This document shows positions 1 to 8,241 of a stretch of 8,241 nucleotides of DNA, piece by piece. The position numbers were made by a program, and so were the translations under genes. Positions within the stretch are counted from its first letter, which is position 1. The number at the start of each line of letters is the position of its first letter. Source of the DNA: a virus (Duplodnaviria > Heunggongvirae > Uroviricota > Caudoviricetes). The stretch covers positions 1-8,241 of the IMG/VR virus record IMGVR_UViG_2579778635_000004; one strand, given 5' to 3'. The notes beneath the pieces are model-generated. The model did no database searches. It saw nothing but the letters and a program-made list of their open reading frames with translations, and was not told the DNA's origin.

Positions 1-1
1 G

Positions 2-718
2 AGTCATGCGGTTTTTCCTGGCATCGTGCTTGCCTGGATTCTGGGGTTACCTCTGGCTACAGGGGCATTTATCGCCGGAGTATTCTGCGCGGTGGCGACG
101 GGATACCTGAAAGACAACAGCCGAATCAAGCAAGATACAGTGATGGGGATTGTTTTTTCTGGCATGTTTGCCGCAGGTCTGATCTTGTATATTGCAGTCA
201 AACCAGACATACATCTTGACCATATTCTTTTCGGCGACATGCTCGGGGTAACCATCGGCGATATAATCCAGACGATGATTATTGCCGGGCTGGTTACACT
301 TGTTATTAGCGTAAAATGGCGGGATTTTTTGCTGTTCAGCTTTGATTATCAACAGGCGCAGGTAAGCGGTTTGCATACGCGATGGCTGCATTATGGGCTG
401 CTGTGCATGGTTTCCCTGACCATTGTGGCGACGCTGAAAGCAGTAGGTATCATTCTCTCCATTTCTCTGCTCATTGCGCCTGGCGCCATTGCGGTACTCC
501 TGACACAACGCTTTCATATTGCACTCCTACTGGCGACTGGCATATCGGTAATAGTCTCAATGACTGGTGTTTGGCTGTCCTTTTTTATCGACAGCGCACC
601 AGCTCCGACGATTGTCGTCTTATTCGCGGTTGTGTTCATCATGACGTTTACCGTTATCAGTTTCAACGCACGCACAAAGGGAAACGCTCATAGACAGGAT
701 CTGTTATCCCCCAATTAG
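2..718 (+). CDS. sitD: ABC-type divalent-metal (Mn/Fe) uptake permease, inner-membrane subunit; 3' portion only, 5' end lies upstream of the window
   Basis: Frame is open from the window edge (codons phased from nt 2) to TAG at 716-718. Translation (...SHAVFPGIVLAWILGLPLATGAFIAGVFCAVATGYLKDNSRIKQDTVMGIVFSGMFAAGL...) is uniformly hydrophobic with the conserved pattern of ABC-3 (ZnuB/MntB/SitC/SitD) permeases. It is the last gene of a + strand operon lying beside lambdoid prophage genes, the context I recall for sitABCD in E. coli/Shigella. Assignment to sitD rather than another ABC-3 paralogue is from memory and context, not a search. Confidence 0.7.
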   Translation, partial: SHAVFPGIVLAWILGLPLATGAFIAGVFCAVATGYLKDNSRIKQDTVMGIVFSGMFAAGLILYIAVKPDIHLDHILFGDMLGVTIGDIIQTMIIAGLVTLVISVKWRDFLLFSFDYQQAQVSGLHTRWLHYGLLCMVSLTIVATLKAVGIILSISLLIAPGAIAVLLTQRFHIALLLATGISVIVSMTGVWLSFFIDSAPAPTIVVLFAVVFIMTFTVISFNARTKGNAHRQDLLSPN

Positions 719-879
719 CACAACATCCGAGGGCAGCATTGTCCGCTAGTACACTGCAGTCCAGAAAGTCATGGGCGGACGTTGGGAGGAGGTGCAAATC
801 CTCCCATACAAAAAATATATAAAATCAATAATGGATTGAAATTATTCAATACTCTCACCATCGACACTTCACCAGCGAA

Positions 880-921
880 CCGCAGCACGTTTTTGCATAA
901 GGCGTGTCTGCGGTTTTCTTT
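880..921 (+). terminator. Candidate intrinsic terminator downstream of the permease gene
   Basis: Imperfect inverted repeat ccgcagcacg (880-889) / cgtgtctgcgg (903-913, one bulged t) around a 13-nt loop, followed by ttttcttt (914-921). The loop is long, so stability is uncertain. Confidence 0.35.
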
Positions 922-1072
922 ATGATTTATGCACAATGGACAATTTGAAATTATTGATGATTGTATGGTGCATCGTTTTCTGAACCTACACTGATTTTTT
1001 GGTATAGCCTTGCCTAGCCAGTCTTACCGGATCAACCCCTTCGCTATTGCAATACTAACCAAAATCATCAAT

Positions 1073-1104
1073 TTGACAGCGATTAACCAGAATAATAGTA
1101 TACT
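1073..1104 (+). promoter_or_regulatory. Candidate sigma70-type promoter for the diguanylate cyclase gene
   Basis: Perfect -35 hexamer TTGACA at 1073-1078 and a -10-like TATACT at 1099-1104 (20-bp spacing, longer than optimal; alternative AT-rich -10 hexamers lie at 1091-1098). About 70 nt upstream of the ATG at 1174, in AT-rich DNA that also contains a (TA)5 tract at 1146-1156. A Shine-Dalgarno AGGTG sits at 1164-1168, 5 nt before the ATG. Confidence 0.3.
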
Positions 1105-1173
1105 ATCACCAGTAAGAAATTATCGTTATTTGTAGCGATACATATTATATATATATCATTCTCAGGTGCGTAC

Positions 1174-2505
1174 ATGATTATCAACCAGGTACCTATAAAA
1201 ATAAAAATCTTCATCTTTTTATTTTCATGCATCTCTATTATATTTTTGTTACTGCATGAAAATAATGGAATATACATAACACAAACAACACAAATAAGTT
1301 ATAGTGTTTTCATTATTGGGCTTTTTTTCATAAACCTGATGATTTTTATTTTTCTATTACTTTACTATGTCTCTAATCAGAGACAAAGTTATCTCTTAAT
1401 TCTTTCATTCGCGTTTTTGAGCAACACGTATTATTTATTAGAAGTGGCTATTATTTCTTTATCTCCGTTAGGTAACGATTTATCTACAATCTATCAGAAA
1501 TCAAATGATATCGCAATATATTATCTATTCCGTCAGTTCAGCTTTATATCTATAATCTTTCTGGCTGTTTATTCCACCAATGTTAAAAATAAAAGTGTTT
1601 TAGAAGATAAAAGAAACATAATAATTGTTGTTTTGTCAATATTAATTCTTTTTATTACTCCGTTTGTAGCAAAAAATCTAAGCAGTGACAATATAAAATA
1701 TAGTCTTAATATTATACAATACTCGCTGAATCGTCATTTGTCGACGTGGAATATCGTGTGCACCAAAATAATATCAGTATTTTGGCTTGTATTACTTATC
1801 AGCTCATGCATCAGCATACGTAATTACTCAAAAATATGGTTGTGTATAATACTTATTAGTATAGTGTCAGTATGCAATAATCTAATTTTATTGTATTTTA
1901 TTGATAAATCCCATCCTGCATGGTACATGACAAAATTTCTTGAATTGATATCAATGATTTATATTATTTCAACACTCATGTATTATGTTTTCAGGAAATT
2001 AAATCATGCTAATCATATGGCAATTCATGATCCACTAACGAATACATACAATAGAAGATACTTTATTGACTCATTGAAGAATATATCAAAACACCATGAT
2101 TTCTCAGTAATAATGTTAGATATTGACAGTTTCAAAAGCATCAATGACAAATGGGGGCATCATATGGGTGATCAAGTCATAGTAATGGTTACCAGAATAA
2201 TAAAAAAATCCATCAGGAAAGAGGATATATTAGGGCGCTTAGGCGGTGAGGAGTTCGGTATTATCATTAAAGGTAATACTCAAAAGCTCTTGCTATCAAT
2301 TGCAGAGCGAATCAGAAAAAACATTGAAGAGCAATGCTCGGAAAAATTATTATCGCATGGACCTGAGAAAATAACTGTCAGTATTGGTTGCTTTACTTCA
2401 AAAGAGAATAATCTCAGTCCATCTGAAATGTTAGTCAATGCCGATAAAGCGTTATATCAAGCCAAAAGAACCGGAAAAAACAAGGTGATAATTCACTCAA
2501 AATAA
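1174..2505 (+). CDS. Membrane-anchored GGDEF-domain diguanylate cyclase: N-terminal ~8-helix integral membrane sensor-like domain (MASE4/YcdT-like by recollection) plus C-terminal GGDEF domain
   Basis: 443-codon ORF, ATG at 1174 preceded by AGGTG, TAA stop at 2503-2505. The C-terminal ~160 aa carry GGDEF hallmarks: DPLTNTYNRRYF, MLDIDSFKSINDKWGH, active-site GGEEF (nt 2242-2256), I-site RxxD as RKED (nt 2215-2226) at canonical spacing, and KALYQAKRTGKNKV. The N-terminal ~280 aa are about eight hydrophobic segments rich in I/L/F. The gene is very AT-rich (13 G+C in nt 1201-1260 by hand count) against ~50-58% in flanking genes. Confidence 0.9.
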   Translation: MIINQVPIKIKIFIFLFSCISIIFLLLHENNGIYITQTTQISYSVFIIGLFFINLMIFIFLLLYYVSNQRQSYLLILSFAFLSNTYYLLEVAIISLSPLGNDLSTIYQKSNDIAIYYLFRQFSFISIIFLAVYSTNVKNKSVLEDKRNIIIVVLSILILFITPFVAKNLSSDNIKYSLNIIQYSLNRHLSTWNIVCTKIISVFWLVLLISSCISIRNYSKIWLCIILISIVSVCNNLILLYFIDKSHPAWYMTKFLELISMIYIISTLMYYVFRKLNHANHMAIHDPLTNTYNRRYFIDSLKNISKHHDFSVIMLDIDSFKSINDKWGHHMGDQVIVMVTRIIKKSIRKEDILGRLGGEEFGIIIKGNTQKLLLSIAERIRKNIEEQCSEKLLSHGPEKITVSIGCFTSKENNLSPSEMLVNADKALYQAKRTGKNKVIIHSK

Positions 2506-2532
2506 ACACCTTTTTAAAATACAGCCCCAATA

Positions 2533-2569
2533 AACTGCAGAATATTATCCCATATAATATCCTGCAGTT
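2533..2569. repeat. Near-perfect 16-bp-arm palindrome in the convergent intergenic gap between the cyclase gene and tfa
   Basis: aactgcagaatattat (2533-2548) / loop cccat (2549-2553) / ataatatcctgcagtt (2554-2569); the arms are reverse complements with one mismatch (a vs g). No strong T-run follows on either strand (a weak TTTATT follows on the - strand). It may be a bidirectional terminator or a protein-binding/recombination site. Confidence 0.4.
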
Positions 2570-2578
2570 CGTAATGCA

Positions 2579-3163
2579 CTATTCGATAATGGGTACTGTT
2601 GGCCATTCAATATCCGGTGCAGTTGTTGTATTAACACGGTTCAGCAACACCCGATACTTCTTCCATGCGGCCAGTAACGCTTTCTCTTCCTCCGTTGCGA
2701 TTTCCAGATCTGCAGCATCCTGAAGCGGCGCAATATGCTCACTGGCTACCTGCATCAGGTTGTTTTTTGTTTCTTCCGCCTCCCGGATCCGGAACAGTTT
2801 TTCTGCTTCCGTATCCTTCACCCAGGCTGTGCCGTTCCACTTCTGAAACTCCCCTTCCGGCGATAACCAGGTAACATTTTTCGGTAACGGACCGAGTTCA
2901 GAAATAAATAACGCGTCGCCGGAAGCCACGTCATAAACCGTTTTACCCCGATGATCTTCAACGAGATGCCACGATGACTCATCACTGTTGAAAACAGCCA
3001 CGAAGCCAGCCGGAATATCTGGCGGTGCAATATCGGTACTGTTTGCTGGCAGACCTGTATGAGGCGGAATATATGCATCACCTTCACCAATAAATTCATT
3101 AGTTCCGGCCAGCAGATTATAAATTGTTATGGTCCGTGGTTGTTCACTCATTCTGAATGCCAT
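2579..3163 (-). CDS. tfa: Tail fibre assembly protein (lambda Tfa family chaperone)
   Basis: 194 aa beginning [58 protein letters not shown]..., which matches lambda-type Tfa as I remember it. ATG at 3161-3163 overlaps the stf stop (TAATG); TAG stop at 2579-2581. Position directly after stf is the canonical lambda order. Confidence 0.95.
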
Positions 3164-6100
3164 TATGCAAGCCTCACAATATAGTTAAATGCGATGTTTT
3201 TGACGGTGTTTTCCGCGTTACCAGCAGCGTTAACGGTGATGGTGTGTCCATGTGAGCCAATCGCAACCGAGTGCGTATGAGCACCAATACCGACAGTATG
3301 TGCGTGAGCACCTGCAGATGCAGCTGTGCCGCTGACACTATGAGTGTGCGCTCCTGCAGCACTTGTATTCACACTGGCCGCAGACACTACCTTATGTACT
3401 GACCCATTTTGTGACCACTGGCTGACTGCTGATGCGCCTGTGACACTATGAGTATGGTTTCCGGCACTTGCGGCTGTACCGCTCACACTGTGCGTATGCG
3501 CCCCGATGTTATTCGTGGATTTAGTGCCGTAATCAAACGACGATGTGGTTTTCGTCCCCAAATCCGTACTGGATGCGCTGGCGCTGTGGGTGTGCGATTT
3601 AATGCCGTCCTGTTCCTGAGACAATACAGCCCGACCACTGGCAGGTTTGCCCTTAATCGTCCAGCCACGCATATCAGGGATCACGCCTGACGGATAAGCG
3701 GCTGCAAGTTTCGGGTATGCAGATTTGTCAAAAGTCTGCCCCTGCATCAGGGCATAACCAGACGGAACGGTATCTGATGGCCACGGGATTGGTGCACCGA
3801 CTGGATAAAACTCTGCAGGAGGATGAGCCGAGGTGTAAAGCTGCGCCCACGGCGACCAGTTTGCGTCGGTCGTATCCCGTCGTGAACGAATAAATGCCGG
3901 AGCATGAGCACCGCTTGTACCACTCCAGCCGATGAGTAACTCACCTTCGCCAACGGCTGTCATCCCTTTCAGGTGAATGATATTTCCATACGTTGTTGGA
4001 TATCCGTTGTTATACACCTCGTATAACTCAAGACCTGCTGCCCCCTGCGTATTGTCTGTCAGCGCGGCTACCCGACCTTTTGAAGCCAGATTAACTGATG
4101 ATACTGCTGTTCCACCTGACGGTAGCGCCCCGATCTCTGATGCCGTTGGCTTATTTCTGGAGTTATAGTCCCTTCGCCAGCCAGGTGAATAATCTGTTCC
4201 GTGATTAATATAGGTAAACTGGGCGTTGGTTGTTCCGCCACCGCTGGATGTGGTCGGAGTGGTAATGCGGATCGTCATCGCTGACTTTATCCCCATTACT
4301 TCAATGACAGCTCCGGCGAGATGAATATTACCGCAGCCAGTATCAGTAATGATTTTATTATTGCCATAAGACCAGGAACCCTTGCACATCCAGTATGGAT
4401 GGTTAAATGCTCCCTGAGAATCCAGCCACTCGATAAACTGTGCAGTCGTCCAGTTTCCTGTTGTTGTGCTTACTGACCCACCGAAGGCACGGCAGGCACC
4501 AATATTTTTCGTAAAGGTGTCTTTGCCAGGGATATCCGCACCGTTCTGATCTTTCTGCAGACGTTTCTCAGCATTGTCATTGGCTGCTTTTACTGCCTTT
4601 GGCGTTGCCGCCAGCGTTTCAGACGTGCTGTTGGTCGCGCTGCTTAGCTGGATTATCCCTTTCTGTGCTGTCGTTGCATCCTGTGCGGTGTATTTCCCGT
4701 TAGCCAGGTCATACGCGGCCTTAACGGCTTTTGGTGTTGCCGCCAGTGACTCGGAAGTGCTGTTAGTCGCACTACTGAGCTGTACTATCCCCTTTTTTGT
4801 CGTGCTCGCATCCTCAAGCGCCACGGCGGATGCAATATCCTCTGCCCGTTTTGCCGCTGTCTCAGCGCGCGTTGCTGCAGATTCCGCCGTACTTTTGCTC
4901 TGAGCTGCTGCCTTCGCACTACCAGCAGCCTCTGTCGCCTTCGTGGATGCCGTCGTGGCGCTGCCCTTCGCTGCTGACGCCTGTCTGGTCGCCTCATCTT
5001 TTGAAGCAGACGCCGATGATGCCGATGACGCCGCCGAACTGGCGGACGATGCCGCTGCCGTTTTTGAGGATTCTGCACGGGTTTCCGACGCTTTCGCGTT
5101 CGTTTCGGATGTCTTCGCTGCGGAAGCTGACCTCGCTGCTGCCGTGGCCTGCTCAGTGGCTTCGCCAGCCTTTGTTGTGGCTGTTGAAGCGGATGATGCG
5201 GCGCTTTCTGCCGATTTTCCGGCGGCGGTGGCACTGGCTGAGGCCTGCCCGGCACTTGTTGACGCGGCACTGGCAGACGACGCAGCCGCTGTTTTTGAGC
5301 CTGCCGCAGCTGAGGCGCTCTGTCCCGCTGCCGTCTCAGAAGACCTGGCGTTCGTCTCGGACGTTTTTGCCGCCTTCGCGGAATTTCCTGCCGCCGTTGC
5401 CGAGGAAGCTGCGCTACTGGCGCTCAAGGATGCGTTCGTTTCTGATGATTTCGCTGCCTCTTTTGAGGCCGCCGCATCCCGGGCTGAAGTGGCGGCTTCT
5501 GACGCTTTCGTCGTCGCAGTGGATGCAGAAGTGGCTGCTGATTTTTGTGACGCTGCAGCATTCGTTTCTGACGTTTTCGCGGCACCGGCACTGGTGGCCG
5601 CCGCGCTTTTTGAGGACTCTGCAGCGGCAGCACTTTTTGATGCTTCAGTGGCCTTTGTTGATGCCGTTCCTGCGCTGGAAGACGCCTCCTGAGCCGACGT
5701 CGCGGCCTGTCCGGCTGACGTGCTGGCTGCACGCGCTGAGCCTGCAGCATCAGTCGCATGGGTTGCCGCCTCACTGGCAGATGTGCCGGCATCACTGGCT
5801 GACTTCTTCGCGGCTGCCGTGTTCTGTGCCACCGCGGACGCGTTACGCGCCACCTCTTCCACCATCAGTTCAAAACGGCGCAGAGCCTCCGGACGGGCAT
5901 CATCCTCCGTCATGGCACCGAGAAAATCATTCAGCGTACCGGGTCGGGAATCTTCATACACGGTGATGGTCCCGGCATGTGACGGCGGGAATCCTTCCAC
6001 CAACAGAATAACGCTGTACTGACCGTACTCAACGTCCATGCTGTAACGCCCGGCTTCATCCGGATTTTCTGAGGCCAGCGTGTTCACCACCACCGTGGTG

Positions 6101-6189
6101 CTGTTACGTTTTGCTTTCAGCTGGATTGTGCAGTTCTGTACCGGTTTTCCTGTGCCGTCTTTCAGTACACCTGAAATCTTTACTGCCAT
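3163..6189 (-). CDS. stf: Side tail fibre protein (lambda Stf family), mosaic
   Basis: Long uninterrupted ORF. The ATG at 6187-6189 ([37 protein letters not shown]...) is the likely start, with GGGG 6-9 nt upstream; the ORF track's GTG at 6195 would add only MN. The N-terminus, the Ala/Ser/Thr-rich repeats with recurring AK(T/S)SETNA motifs, the His-rich HxH C-terminal region ([40 protein letters not shown]) and the final [18 protein letters not shown] all resemble lambda Stf. TAA stop at 3163-3165. Confidence 0.95.
4590..4810 (-). repeat. Tandem duplication inside stf encoding two copies of a conserved tail-fibre repeat motif
   Basis: The protein has [28 protein letters not shown] and [28 protein letters not shown] separated by ~15 aa. 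The DNA copies (about 4594-4675 and 4723-4806) are visibly similar, e.g. ctttggcgttgccgccagcgtttcagacgtgctgttggtcgc vs cttttggtgttgccgccagtgactcggaagtgctgttagtcgc. Confidence 0.75.
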
Positions 6190-6200
6190 ATTCACCCCAC

Positions 6201-6227
6201 AAAAAAGCCCGCCTGAACCGGCGGGCT
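6201..6227 (-). terminator. Intrinsic terminator between lom and stf (- strand)
   Basis: On the - strand: AGCCCGCC (6227-6220) / 6-nt loop / GGCGGGCT (6213-6206), GC-rich 8-bp stem, immediately followed by TTTTTT (complement of a 6201-6206), then GTGGGG and the stf ATG. Confidence 0.6.
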
Positions 6228-6253
6228 GTCATAACACTGTGTTACCTGGCTAA

Positions 6254-6853
6254 TCAGAACTTATAACCGACACCCATGATGAAACCGTCAGTGCGCCAGT
6301 CGCCACTGCCGGAGCCTTCATAAGCAATATCAATGGCCACGGATTCGGTCGGGTTAAACTGCACGCCAGCTCCCCACGCCAGAGACGTGTTGCTGTGGCG
6401 ACCGTCATCACTTCCGGTCAGCACATCGTGCGTTTTCCCCTTGTTGTCAGTTACGCGAAGATAATCCCCGGAGAAAGTCGACACACGGCTGTAAGCCACA
6501 CCCGCCATCGCATACGCGCTGAACCATTCATTCACGCGCACAGACGGCCCCGCCATTACGCTGAACCAGCGGTTACGAACGGAATCTTCATGCCAGCGGG
6601 TATCGCTGTAACGGGTCAGCTGGCGATTCTTGTCTCCTGCATAGCTGAATGACGTCACCAGCCCCAACGTGTCCGTAAACTCATAACGGTATTTCACGTT
6701 AATCCCGTTCAGATCATCACTGCCGGGAACGTTCGTCGAGGCATGAAGATACCCCGCGCTCAGCGTGGACTGATGTTCAGACGCCCATGCAGGCGCACCG
6801 GATACGGCCAGACAAATGGCTGCGGACAAAATTGCTGCACAAACTTTACGCAT
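6254..6853 (-). CDS. lom: Lom outer-membrane protein (Ail/Lom/PagC/OmpX family beta-barrel), prophage-encoded
   Basis: 199 aa: MRKVCAAILSAAICLAVSGAPAWASEHQSTLSAGYLHASTNVPGSDDLNGINVKYRYEFTDTLGLVTSFSYAGDKNRQL...GFIMGVGYKF. It has a signal peptide (cleavage likely after AWA), alternating beta-strand pattern and C-terminal aromatic residue, and closely matches lambda Lom as I recall it. SD GAGAGG precedes the ATG at 6851-6853; it lies between J and stf as in lambda. Confidence 0.95.
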   Translation of the reverse strand: MRKVCAAILSAAICLAVSGAPAWASEHQSTLSAGYLHASTNVPGSDDLNGINVKYRYEFTDTLGLVTSFSYAGDKNRQLTRYSDTRWHEDSVRNRWFSVMAGPSVRVNEWFSAYAMAGVAYSRVSTFSGDYLRVTDNKGKTHDVLTGSDDGRHSNTSLAWGAGVQFNPTESVAIDIAYEGSGSGDWRTDGFIMGVGYKF

Positions 6854-6877
6854 AATTACCTCTCGCTTTTCTGCAAT

Positions 6878-6901
6878 AAAAAAGGCGTCATTCCTGACGC
6901 C
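6878..6901 (-). terminator. Candidate intrinsic terminator between J and lom (- strand)
   Basis: On the - strand: GGCGTCA (6901-6895) / loop GGAA / TGACGCC (6890-6884), followed by TTTTTT (complement of a 6878-6883). It sits 22 nt after the J stop (TGA at 6924-6926) and before the lom SD. Confidence 0.5.
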
Positions 6902-6923
6902 ATTTATTGGGGTTATAAATATT

Positions 6924-8241
6924 TCAACGAATACTGATGCCGGAAGCAGCTTTTTTGGTCACAATCACCGTACAGTCGGTGATATTGCCTGCCCCCTGAT
7001 TGCCTTTCTGGAAAATCTTAAACTCCAGAGTGACGCTACCACCACCACTAGGCATATCAATAACTGCACTGTAACTACCGGGAATGGCCCCTTTAGTTTC
7101 TCTGGATGCGATTAATACGCCGTTTTTGCGAACTTCAAAACCATAACCCGTGTATCGCGTGCCTCCTGGGTTATTTCCGCTCCCCGGATCGTCATACGCT
7201 ATACCGTTAAAAATAATGGGCGGAATAATAATCTGGCGGTCAAAGTTATGATCATCGCTGATGGTGACTGTAACCGTACCGTTTGGTGTTTCCGTGTTAC
7301 CCCACGTACCGACTTTTTTCGGGAAGGCTTTTGATACAGCTTTAACGAAATCCCCTCTGACCTGGGTCGCCTCCAGCATGCCCTTAATCGTACAGTTCTG
7401 GTTAATCGTGACATTGTTGAGCGTTCCTGAGTTCGCATTCACACTGCCACTGATATCCGCATTTTTAGCGGTCAGCTTTCCGTCTGATGTCAGGGAAAAT
7501 ACCGGAGGACTGCCACCGCTGGTAATGGTGGGGGCCGTCAGGCGCTTCAGGAACACGTCGTTCATGAATATCTGGTTGCCCTGCGCCACAAACATCGGCG
7601 TTTCATTCCCGTTTGCCGGGTCAATAAACGCGATACGGTTAGCGGCAACCAGAAACTGGCTCAGCTTGCCTTCCTCCGTGTCCTCCATGCTGAGGCCAAT
7701 ACCCGCGACATAATGTTTGCCGTCTTTGGTCTGCTCAATTTTGACGCCCCACATGGCATTCCATTTATCGTTAGCGTCCTTCCACTCTTTCGAAAACTCA
7801 TCCAGTCTGCTGGCGTTATCCTCCGTCAGATCGACTTTTTCCAGCAGCTCCTTGCCGAGATGAGATTCGGTTATCTTGCCTTTGAAAAAATCCAGGTAAC
7901 CTTCCGCATCATCGCTCGCCCGACCGACGGCTTCCACGAATGCCGATTTGCCAACGGTGTTCACACTGCGGATATAAAAGTAATAATCATGGCCCGGTTT
8001 GATATTGATACTGGCGGCTATCCAGTACAGCGCCGTACCAAGATAGCGGGCTGTGGTTTCAACCTGCCTGATATCGGTAATCCGCTTTTCCGAGAACCAG
8101 AACTCAAACTGTACCGTCGGGTCATAAACGGCAAGATGCGGCGTGGCGGTTATCTGAAAATAGCCCGGCGTCAGCTCAATCCTCGACGGTGCTGCCGGTG
8201 CGGCAATCCGGAACGATACCGACGCCGGATCGCCCTGCTGC
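6924..8241 (-). CDS. J: Tail tip / host-specificity protein J (central tail fibre), C-terminal ~439 aa; 5' end lies beyond the right edge of the window
   Basis: The frame stays open on the - strand from the window edge to TGA at 6924-6926; the ORF track's 346-aa ORF is only the part after an internal GTG. Hand translation upstream of that GTG gives ...[45 protein letters not shown]..., matching the lambda J C-terminal region as I recall it. The last ~130 aa differ from lambda J. Confidence 0.93.

Follow-up and report, generated by a model that had tools for sequence, protein, structure and literature searches.

The stretch of DNA analyzed here, referred to as the window, comprises 8,241 nucleotides of a tailed-phage record and contains an AT-rich block of about 1.5 kb (positions 1060-2578) lodged between metal-uptake genes and the tail genes of a prophage. 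The locus raises the question of what this block is, whether it belongs to the prophage or to the chromosome of the host, and what the single gene that it holds would bring to a bacterium that acquires it. The initial annotation, made from the letters alone, saw in it a separately acquired diguanylate cyclase gene, and pointed to DgcX, a prophage-flanked cyclase reported near the lambda attachment locus in enteroaggregative E. coli, as the same gene or a relative.

The gene dgcX was named by Richter et al. (2014; PMC4287979), who found it in Escherichia coli O104:H4 with ybhB on one side and a prophage at attB on the other. The carriers listed in 2014 were EAEC, O104:H4, two ETEC strains and the commensal SE11; the gene lay at lambda attB except in SE11, where uspF-ompN was its neighbor, and lambdoid prophage DNA always adjoined it (PMC4287979). 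A third site, argW-dsdC, was subsequently reported by Cimdins-Ahne et al. (2023; PMC10459773), who also found dgcX to be restricted to Escherichia. In the present analysis, the AT-rich block is identified as dgcX, the published horizontally transferred gene, carried as a cargo unit of a prophage, and a probability of roughly 0.93 is assigned to this reading. The existence of the gene, its horizontal transfer and prophage association, and a location on the uspF side are already known; the att-bounded position, the defined slot in the b region, the pairing with sitABCD and a census of carriers are small additions to that knowledge.

The block is compositionally distinct from everything around it. 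Its computed G+C content is 0.298, against 0.489 in the left flank (1-718, part of sitD) and 0.535 in the right flank (2579-8241, the phage tail region). Sliding windows confirmed the abrupt drop, from about half to roughly a quarter over some 1.5 kb, that had been proposed from hand counts, and the counts themselves (13 of 60 in 1201-1260 and 35 of 60 in 4981-5040) were exact. The 200-nt windows within 1101-2600 have a G+C content of 0.235-0.37 and those lying entirely outside 801-2700 have 0.43-0.66, with no overlap between the two sets. As had also been noted, the block holds a single gene, one long open reading frame of 443 codons. The left edge requires a distinction: the G+C content does fall where the initial annotation had put the start of the block (1060-1080), the steepest fall being near 1060-1100 and coinciding with the -35 element of a promoter-like site, but homology to lambda and to the Rac prophage of K-12 already ends at 913-917. 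The intervening stretch (914-1173) has an intermediate G+C content of 0.338, and the foreign unit as delimited by homology (914-2579) has 0.305.

Such a composition might simply follow from the amino acids that a hydrophobic membrane protein requires, the gene being an ancestral core gene with nothing foreign about it. The paralogs of K-12 are also AT-rich (0.386 for dgcT and 0.385 for cdgI), and within dgcX the G+C content is lowest in the membrane half (0.268). However, the half encoding the soluble GGDEF domain is low as well (0.343), and the coding sequence as a whole (0.296, compared with 0.48-0.56 in the adjoining phage genes) is poor in G+C at each of the three codon positions (0.304, 0.275 and 0.309). 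The third-position value of 0.309 compares with 0.45-0.60 in five neighboring genes. Because both the third positions and the soluble half are low, the composition is not a matter of amino-acid content alone. Furthermore, dgcX is missing from 86% of complete genomes and occupies several sites. The pattern of presence and absence, together with the third-position composition, refutes the idea of a core gene, the chance of which is practically nil.

The coding sequence (1174-2505, plus strand) specifies a protein of which 438 of 443 residues are identical, in a gap-free alignment, to WP_000586343.1 of E. coli O104:H4. The locus of the latter, between ybhB and a lambdoid prophage, fits the published description of dgcX. 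The naming of DgcX was therefore correct and, as was expected should it prove so, the novelty of the gene is lowered since it has already been published. Residues 40-274 (nucleotides 1291-1995) match the MASE4 integral-membrane sensor domain (Pfam PF17158, E = 5.7e-35; score 121.3 bits, cut-off 28.4; 4-237 of the 239 profile positions), and multiple hydrophobic segments are found in residues 1-274. Residues 283-437 (nucleotides 2020-2484) match the GGDEF catalytic domain (PF00990, E = 3.5e-44; score 150.9 bits, cut-off 23.8) over the whole profile, 1-161 of 161. With both matches far above the Pfam cut-offs, the assignment as a diguanylate cyclase gene stands. An I-site, RKED (residues 348-351, nucleotides 2215-2226), is followed after five residues by the A-site GGEEF (residues 357-361, nucleotides 2242-2256), which is the arrangement of product-inhibited cyclases. 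Judged by these motifs, the product is predicted to be an inner-membrane diguanylate cyclase with intact active and product-inhibition sites.

A GGDEF protein may also be degenerate and serve as a noncatalytic receptor of c-di-GMP, as in the case of CdgI of K-12, and over 426 residues the identity of the protein to CdgI (38%) is slightly above that to DgcT (37%). The aligned position reads EGEVF in CdgI, but the protein of the window retains an intact GGEEF, and mutation of this motif to GGAAF or GGEAF abolishes the effects of DgcX on cellulose and motility (PMC10459773). A receptor role in place of catalysis is thus exceedingly improbable. In addition, with a dN/dS of 0.16 between dgcX of the window and the allele lineage of strain CEC15, and with the motifs preserved, the protein is under purifying selection.

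The census of complete E. coli genomes bears out the polymorphism that had been anticipated, the block being present at a coverage of at least 80% in 766 of 5426 genomes (approximately 14%). It lies at three or more chromosomal sites. The junction ybhB-attR-dgcX was found in 587 complete E. coli genomes and the junction sitD-dgcX in 42 (strict coverage), while 82 cover the whole window to 80% or more, with sitD included in all of the matches listed. In 520 complete genomes the 3' end of dgcX continues directly into about 120 nt or more of tfa, and in every context inspected a tfa gene or a remnant of one abuts this end. On the question of whether the block always travels with the prophage, this adjacency to tfa was seen in every carrier inspected. 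This includes CEC15, in which a diverged allele (94% nucleotide identity in the coding sequence) lies in the argW-dsdC island beside a 96-nt remnant of tfa. Sixteen IMG/VR contigs, which are predicted pieces of prophages, also carry the block.

Searches outside these chromosomes gave no comparable carrier. A megablast search of the block against 50,697 GenBank phage records yielded no match, and tblastn of the protein against phage records returned only hits to the GGDEF domain, with less than 60% identity and at most 63% coverage; packaging of dgcX into virions was not observed in that no sequenced phage record contains the block or the full-length protein, an absence that does not by itself show that dgcX is never packaged. 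Megablast of 914-2578 against the PLSDB plasmids was likewise negative, and for this reason nine plasmid locations obtained with the block query are attributed, by inference, to the sit-proximal part of that query. Among the GTDB species representatives, relatives were found only in E. coli, in a single-protein mode that finds close relatives only. One match to a metagenome-assembled genome labeled 'Bacillota' was rejected, as it lies on a 2.5-kb contig that is 99% E. coli sequence.

The borders of the unit were defined by comparison with two lambdoid genomes. Homology to lambda covers 767-913 of the window and resumes at 2580, at the tfa stop codon. The left segment (767-913; blastn, 77.6% over 147 nt) corresponds to lambda 24162-24308 in the b region between ea47 and ea31, and the O104:H4 copy of this segment is 89% identical to the same unannotated stretch of lambda. 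Homology to the Rac prophage of K-12 covers 878-917 and resumes at 2597, with pinR, ynaE and ynaM in between. The edges given by lambda and by Rac agree, and the foreign unit is therefore placed at approximately 914-2579, where it takes the place and orientation of ea47 of lambda. On this alignment the tfa stop codon and a conserved hairpin of the b region delimit the space that dgcX fills. The earlier proposal that the block occupies the position of the lambda b region can thus be made more specific: dgcX lies between tfa and attR, at the place of ea47.

Whether this place lies inside or outside the prophage was examined in O104:H4 and in strain STK77-E, and the ends of the prophage in the window were accordingly read in close relatives and not in its own genome. 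In O104:H4, two copies of the 15-nt lambda att core were located, one between ybhB and dgcX (locus L002, 11681-11695) and the other between int and ybhC (locus L028, 31415-31429); they share the same orientation and are separated by about 44.6 kb. The sequence at L002 11677-11948 resembles the lambda core and P arm (89% by blastn; mean column identity of 92% by MAFFT). From the att cores and the homology of the P arm, it follows that dgcX of O104:H4 lies between attR and tfa. STK77-E matches the window from 1 to about 2600 and is identical over 720-2620. The order of its genes is ttcA, intR, xisR ... J, lom, stf, tfa, dgcX, sitDCBA, uspF, and a repeat of 26 nt (exact; 43 nt at 93%) is found in ttcA beside intR and again between uspF and sitA. 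In STK77-E, the sequence homologous to K-12 extends across the ttcC attR fragment and on into Rac DNA, and sitA starts only after that. These repeats, together with the homology to K-12, place both sitABCD and dgcX inside the prophage. The gene therefore lies within att boundaries in both cases, of the lambda-attB type in O104:H4 and of the ttcA/Rac type in STK77-E. By its similarity to the latter, the carrier in the window is a Rac-type prophage integrated in ttcA, with a b region that also holds sitABCD. The sit operon, taken at first for a chromosomal neighbor of the phage, is thus part of the same prophage.

These observations bear on the mechanism proposed in 2014, when dgcX was placed next to the prophage and specialized transduction was suggested (PMC4287979), that is, a chromosomal gene spread through aberrant excision. 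The composition of dgcX, which is unlike that of the adjoining phage genes, would agree with this mechanism. However, att repeats enclose the gene in both prophage types examined, homology to the lambda b region is found on both sides of the unit, and the unit recurs with a tfa remnant at three different integration sites. A chromosomal gene beside the prophage is consequently very unlikely, although the original capture of dgcX could still have been an ancient aberrant excision. The description as a separately acquired cargo of the moron type, in contrast, agrees with the patchy presence, the several sites, the distinct G+C content and the slot within the att boundaries. The two prophages may themselves be defective: the terminase is frameshifted in O104:H4 and tfa is truncated in STK77-E.

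The neighboring genes are those named in the initial annotation: sitD precedes the block, and tfa, stf, lom and J follow it. The 3' part of sitD (1-718, plus strand; Pfam ABC-3, E = 2.4e-55) encodes the permease of an iron/manganese ABC transporter and is the last gene of sitABCD; it starts upstream of the window, and SitD is annotated in STK77-E, which is identical over 1-718. The remaining genes are on the minus strand. The tail-fiber assembly gene tfa (2579-3163, 194 residues; Pfam Caudo_TAP, E = 4.4e-43) has 91.8% nucleotide identity to orf-194 of lambda from the stop codon inward. It is followed by stf (3163-6195, 1010 residues), an open reading frame annotated as a prophage tail fiber in related genomes and taken here as the side tail fiber, with partial homology to orf-401/orf-314 of lambda; Tandem Repeats Finder reported nothing in stf. 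The outer-membrane protein gene lom (6254-6853; Ail/Lom family, PF06316, E = 5e-122) and the 3' part of J (6924-8241; tail tip and host specificity, Pfam Phage_Tail_Tip and Ig_GpJ_C, annotated as gpJ in related genomes) complete the window, and J runs on beyond it. No complete E. coli genome matches the whole window at 100%, the best having 85% coverage and 97.7% identity. The best whole-window relatives differ from it in the middle of stf.

Several candidate signals surround dgcX. A terminator-like hairpin followed by a T-run, TTTTCTTTAT (877-924, plus strand, with the stem at 877-916), lies downstream of sitD and upstream of dgcX and folds as RNA with -25.4 kcal/mol (z = -4.4). It is largely conserved in the O104:H4 copy, which has a perfect 14-bp stem (-24.7 kcal/mol), and is more divergent in that of CEC15. 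This hairpin would end sitD transcripts and thereby insulate dgcX. A sigma-70-like promoter, TTGACA-17-TAGTAT (1073-1101, plus strand), matches the consensus at 10 of 12 positions and lies 72 nt before the ATG. It is the best promoter-like site in 700-2700, where the total number of such sites is not above the expectation from shuffled sequence. The site is identical in the O104:H4 allele, and the -35 element is degenerate (TTAATA) in the CEC15 allele. A Shine-Dalgarno-like AGGTG (1164-1168, plus strand), 5 nt before the ATG, is kept in all three dgcX contexts. The palindrome said to precede the tfa stop codon is real: dgcX and tfa converge, and in the gap between their stop codons two 16-nt arms (2533-2548 and 2554-2569) are 94% complementary around a 5-nt loop. 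This element (2533-2569) folds on both the plus strand (-15.8 kcal/mol, z = -5.8) and the minus strand (-22.1 kcal/mol, z = -4.8), with UUUAUU after the stem on the latter; it is found in neither lambda nor Rac of K-12 and is conserved in all three dgcX contexts. It is probably a 3' hairpin or terminator for the transcripts of both dgcX and tfa. A terminator scan of 700-2700 called nothing, and both hairpins came from an inverted-repeat search and folding. Given a putative promoter, a ribosome-binding site and two flanking hairpins whose functions are read from their form, dgcX may be transcribed on its own in the lysogen; strong independent expression is on record from a published reporter fusion (PMC4287979).

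An A+T content of about 70% over 1.5 kb, as in this block, is typical of targets of H-NS, and the initial annotation considered the gene to be probably silenced by this protein. Under silencing, dgcX would contribute little during normal growth. This expectation conflicts with published expression data, in which dgcX, assayed as a single-copy lacZ fusion in K-12 W3110, far exceeded every other cyclase gene of E. coli in expression, with a dependence on both RpoD and RpoS (PMC4287979). The fusion was made with the O104:H4 allele, whose promoter-like site is the one found in the window. Moreover, the deletion of dgcX alters the behavior of strain Fec101, the motility of which becomes slightly higher (PMC10459773). 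With the strongest published reporter in K-12, silencing by H-NS is therefore unlikely. The reporter may lack intragenic nucleation sites for H-NS, which leaves room for partial repression. A full-text literature search for dgcX together with H-NS returned no study of H-NS binding at the gene and only a general review of biofilms.

A working DgcX would raise the level of c-di-GMP, and published work links the protein to more cellulose and rdar biofilm and to less swimming; specifically, overexpression induces cellulose and represses motility (PMC10459773). Transfer of the gene would occur by ordinary lysogenization. With dgcX in a fixed slot inside the att boundaries, lysogenization would install a strongly expressed source of c-di-GMP in the host and, in a prophage of the ttcA/Rac type, would bring the SitABCD iron/manganese importer along with it. 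The att-bounded slot, the sharing with sitABCD and the census suggest spread by ordinary lysogeny and not by rare aberrant excision. A further step, which is rather unlikely, is that dgcX is a working part of the lysogenic-conversion toolkit of the phage and not a passive passenger. The host would then be pushed toward sessile life within a matrix; the lysogen might thereby be shielded from superinfection, or prophage induction might be affected. DgcX has been proposed as a contributor to the strong adherence and to the biofilm of the O104:H4 outbreak strain of 2011, so recognition of the gene is useful for annotation.

The closest known system is dgcX of O104:H4 and EAEC 55989. Their DgcX has the same length, the same MASE4-GGDEF architecture and the same I-site and A-site, and differs from that of the window, in the O104:H4 comparison, by five amino-acid substitutions; at the O104:H4 locus, no more than one base is changed in the promoter-like site and the downstream palindrome. 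In both cases the gene adjoins tfa of a lambdoid prophage. The carriers are nevertheless different, with the prophage of the window in ttcA (Rac type) and that of O104:H4 at lambda attB, and sitABCD stands directly upstream of dgcX in the window in place of the lambda P arm of O104:H4.

The relatives in K-12 are more distant. DgcT (YcdT; 452 residues) shares MASE4 and a GGDEF domain of the active type, with RxxD and GGEEF, and its gene is AT-rich as noted above. However, it is only 37% identical and chromosomal, beside pgaABCD, and is not borne by a prophage; dgcT is also reported to be very weakly expressed, in contrast to the strong expression of dgcX (PMC4287979). CdgI (YeaI) shares the MASE4-GGDEF architecture at 38% identity, but it is longer (491 residues), is encoded on the chromosome and has a degenerate active site, for which it is considered to be noncatalytic.

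As a genetic unit, dgcX, a predicted independent transcription unit, is best compared with the morons and b-region cargo of lambdoid phages, such as lom, bor and ea47 of lambda and pinR-ynaE-ynaM of Rac, which are likewise of deviant composition and in a nonessential slot. Like ea47 and pinR-ynaE-ynaM, it sits exactly between tfa and the b-region hairpin and is bounded by conserved phage sequence. It differs from them in its payload, a c-di-GMP synthase, and in that it replaces the resident genes of the b region and is not a pure insertion between two adjacent genes.

The sitABCD operon, which encodes an iron/manganese transporter (8550-11999 in L001, the locus of E. coli STK77-E; window 1-718 covers the 3' part of sitD), is enclosed by the att boundaries of a Rac-type prophage. 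The att repeat is present in two copies, one between uspF and sitA and the other in ttcA adjoining intR (L001 8165-8190; L005 12474-12499). sitABCD and dgcX are therefore two neighbouring cargo units within the prophage's b region. Upstream of dgcX, at the position of window 814-930 on the minus strand, the RefSeq annotation of STK77-E lists a pseudogene for an 'incomplete capsid protein'. This call is probably an annotation artefact, because a terminator-like hairpin overlaps the interval, which is also homologous to a part of the lambda b region (24162-24308) that carries no annotation.

The middle of stf (window 3840-4707) has no counterpart in H10, otherwise the closest genome, or in the K-12 Rac prophage, which indicates mosaic exchange inside stf. 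The adjoining Ala/Ser-rich stretch (about 4800-5900) reaches a G+C content of 0.66, and no tandem repeats were found in it by Tandem Repeats Finder. In STK77-E, tfa is cut down to a 147-nt remnant (L001 13860-14006) and stf also differs from that of the window, whereas the dgcX region is 100% identical; this prophage's tail-fibre end is evidently undergoing reshuffling while dgcX remains unchanged.

A second dgcX allele lineage is located in the argW-dsdC island of E. coli CEC15 (L027 7393-8893), with 94% nucleotide and 94% amino-acid identity and a dN/dS of 0.16. The surrounding island is decayed, and a 96-nt tfa remnant adjoins dgcX. The -35 hexamer of this allele is degenerate (TTAATA in place of TTGACA), and its expression may therefore differ from that of the O104:H4 type. 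In a 'Bacillota bacterium' metagenome-assembled genome, one 2.5 kb contig (L006; JAEWTL010000008.1) codes for a protein with 99% identity to DgcX of E. coli; this contig almost certainly comes from E. coli and was mis-binned.

The K-12 paralogs dgcT (L003 2877-4235) and cdgI (L029 3386-4861) have the MASE4-GGDEF architecture in common with dgcX. Both are AT-rich for E. coli, with G+C contents of 0.386 and 0.385, respectively; however, dgcX is far more AT-rich than either, at 0.296.
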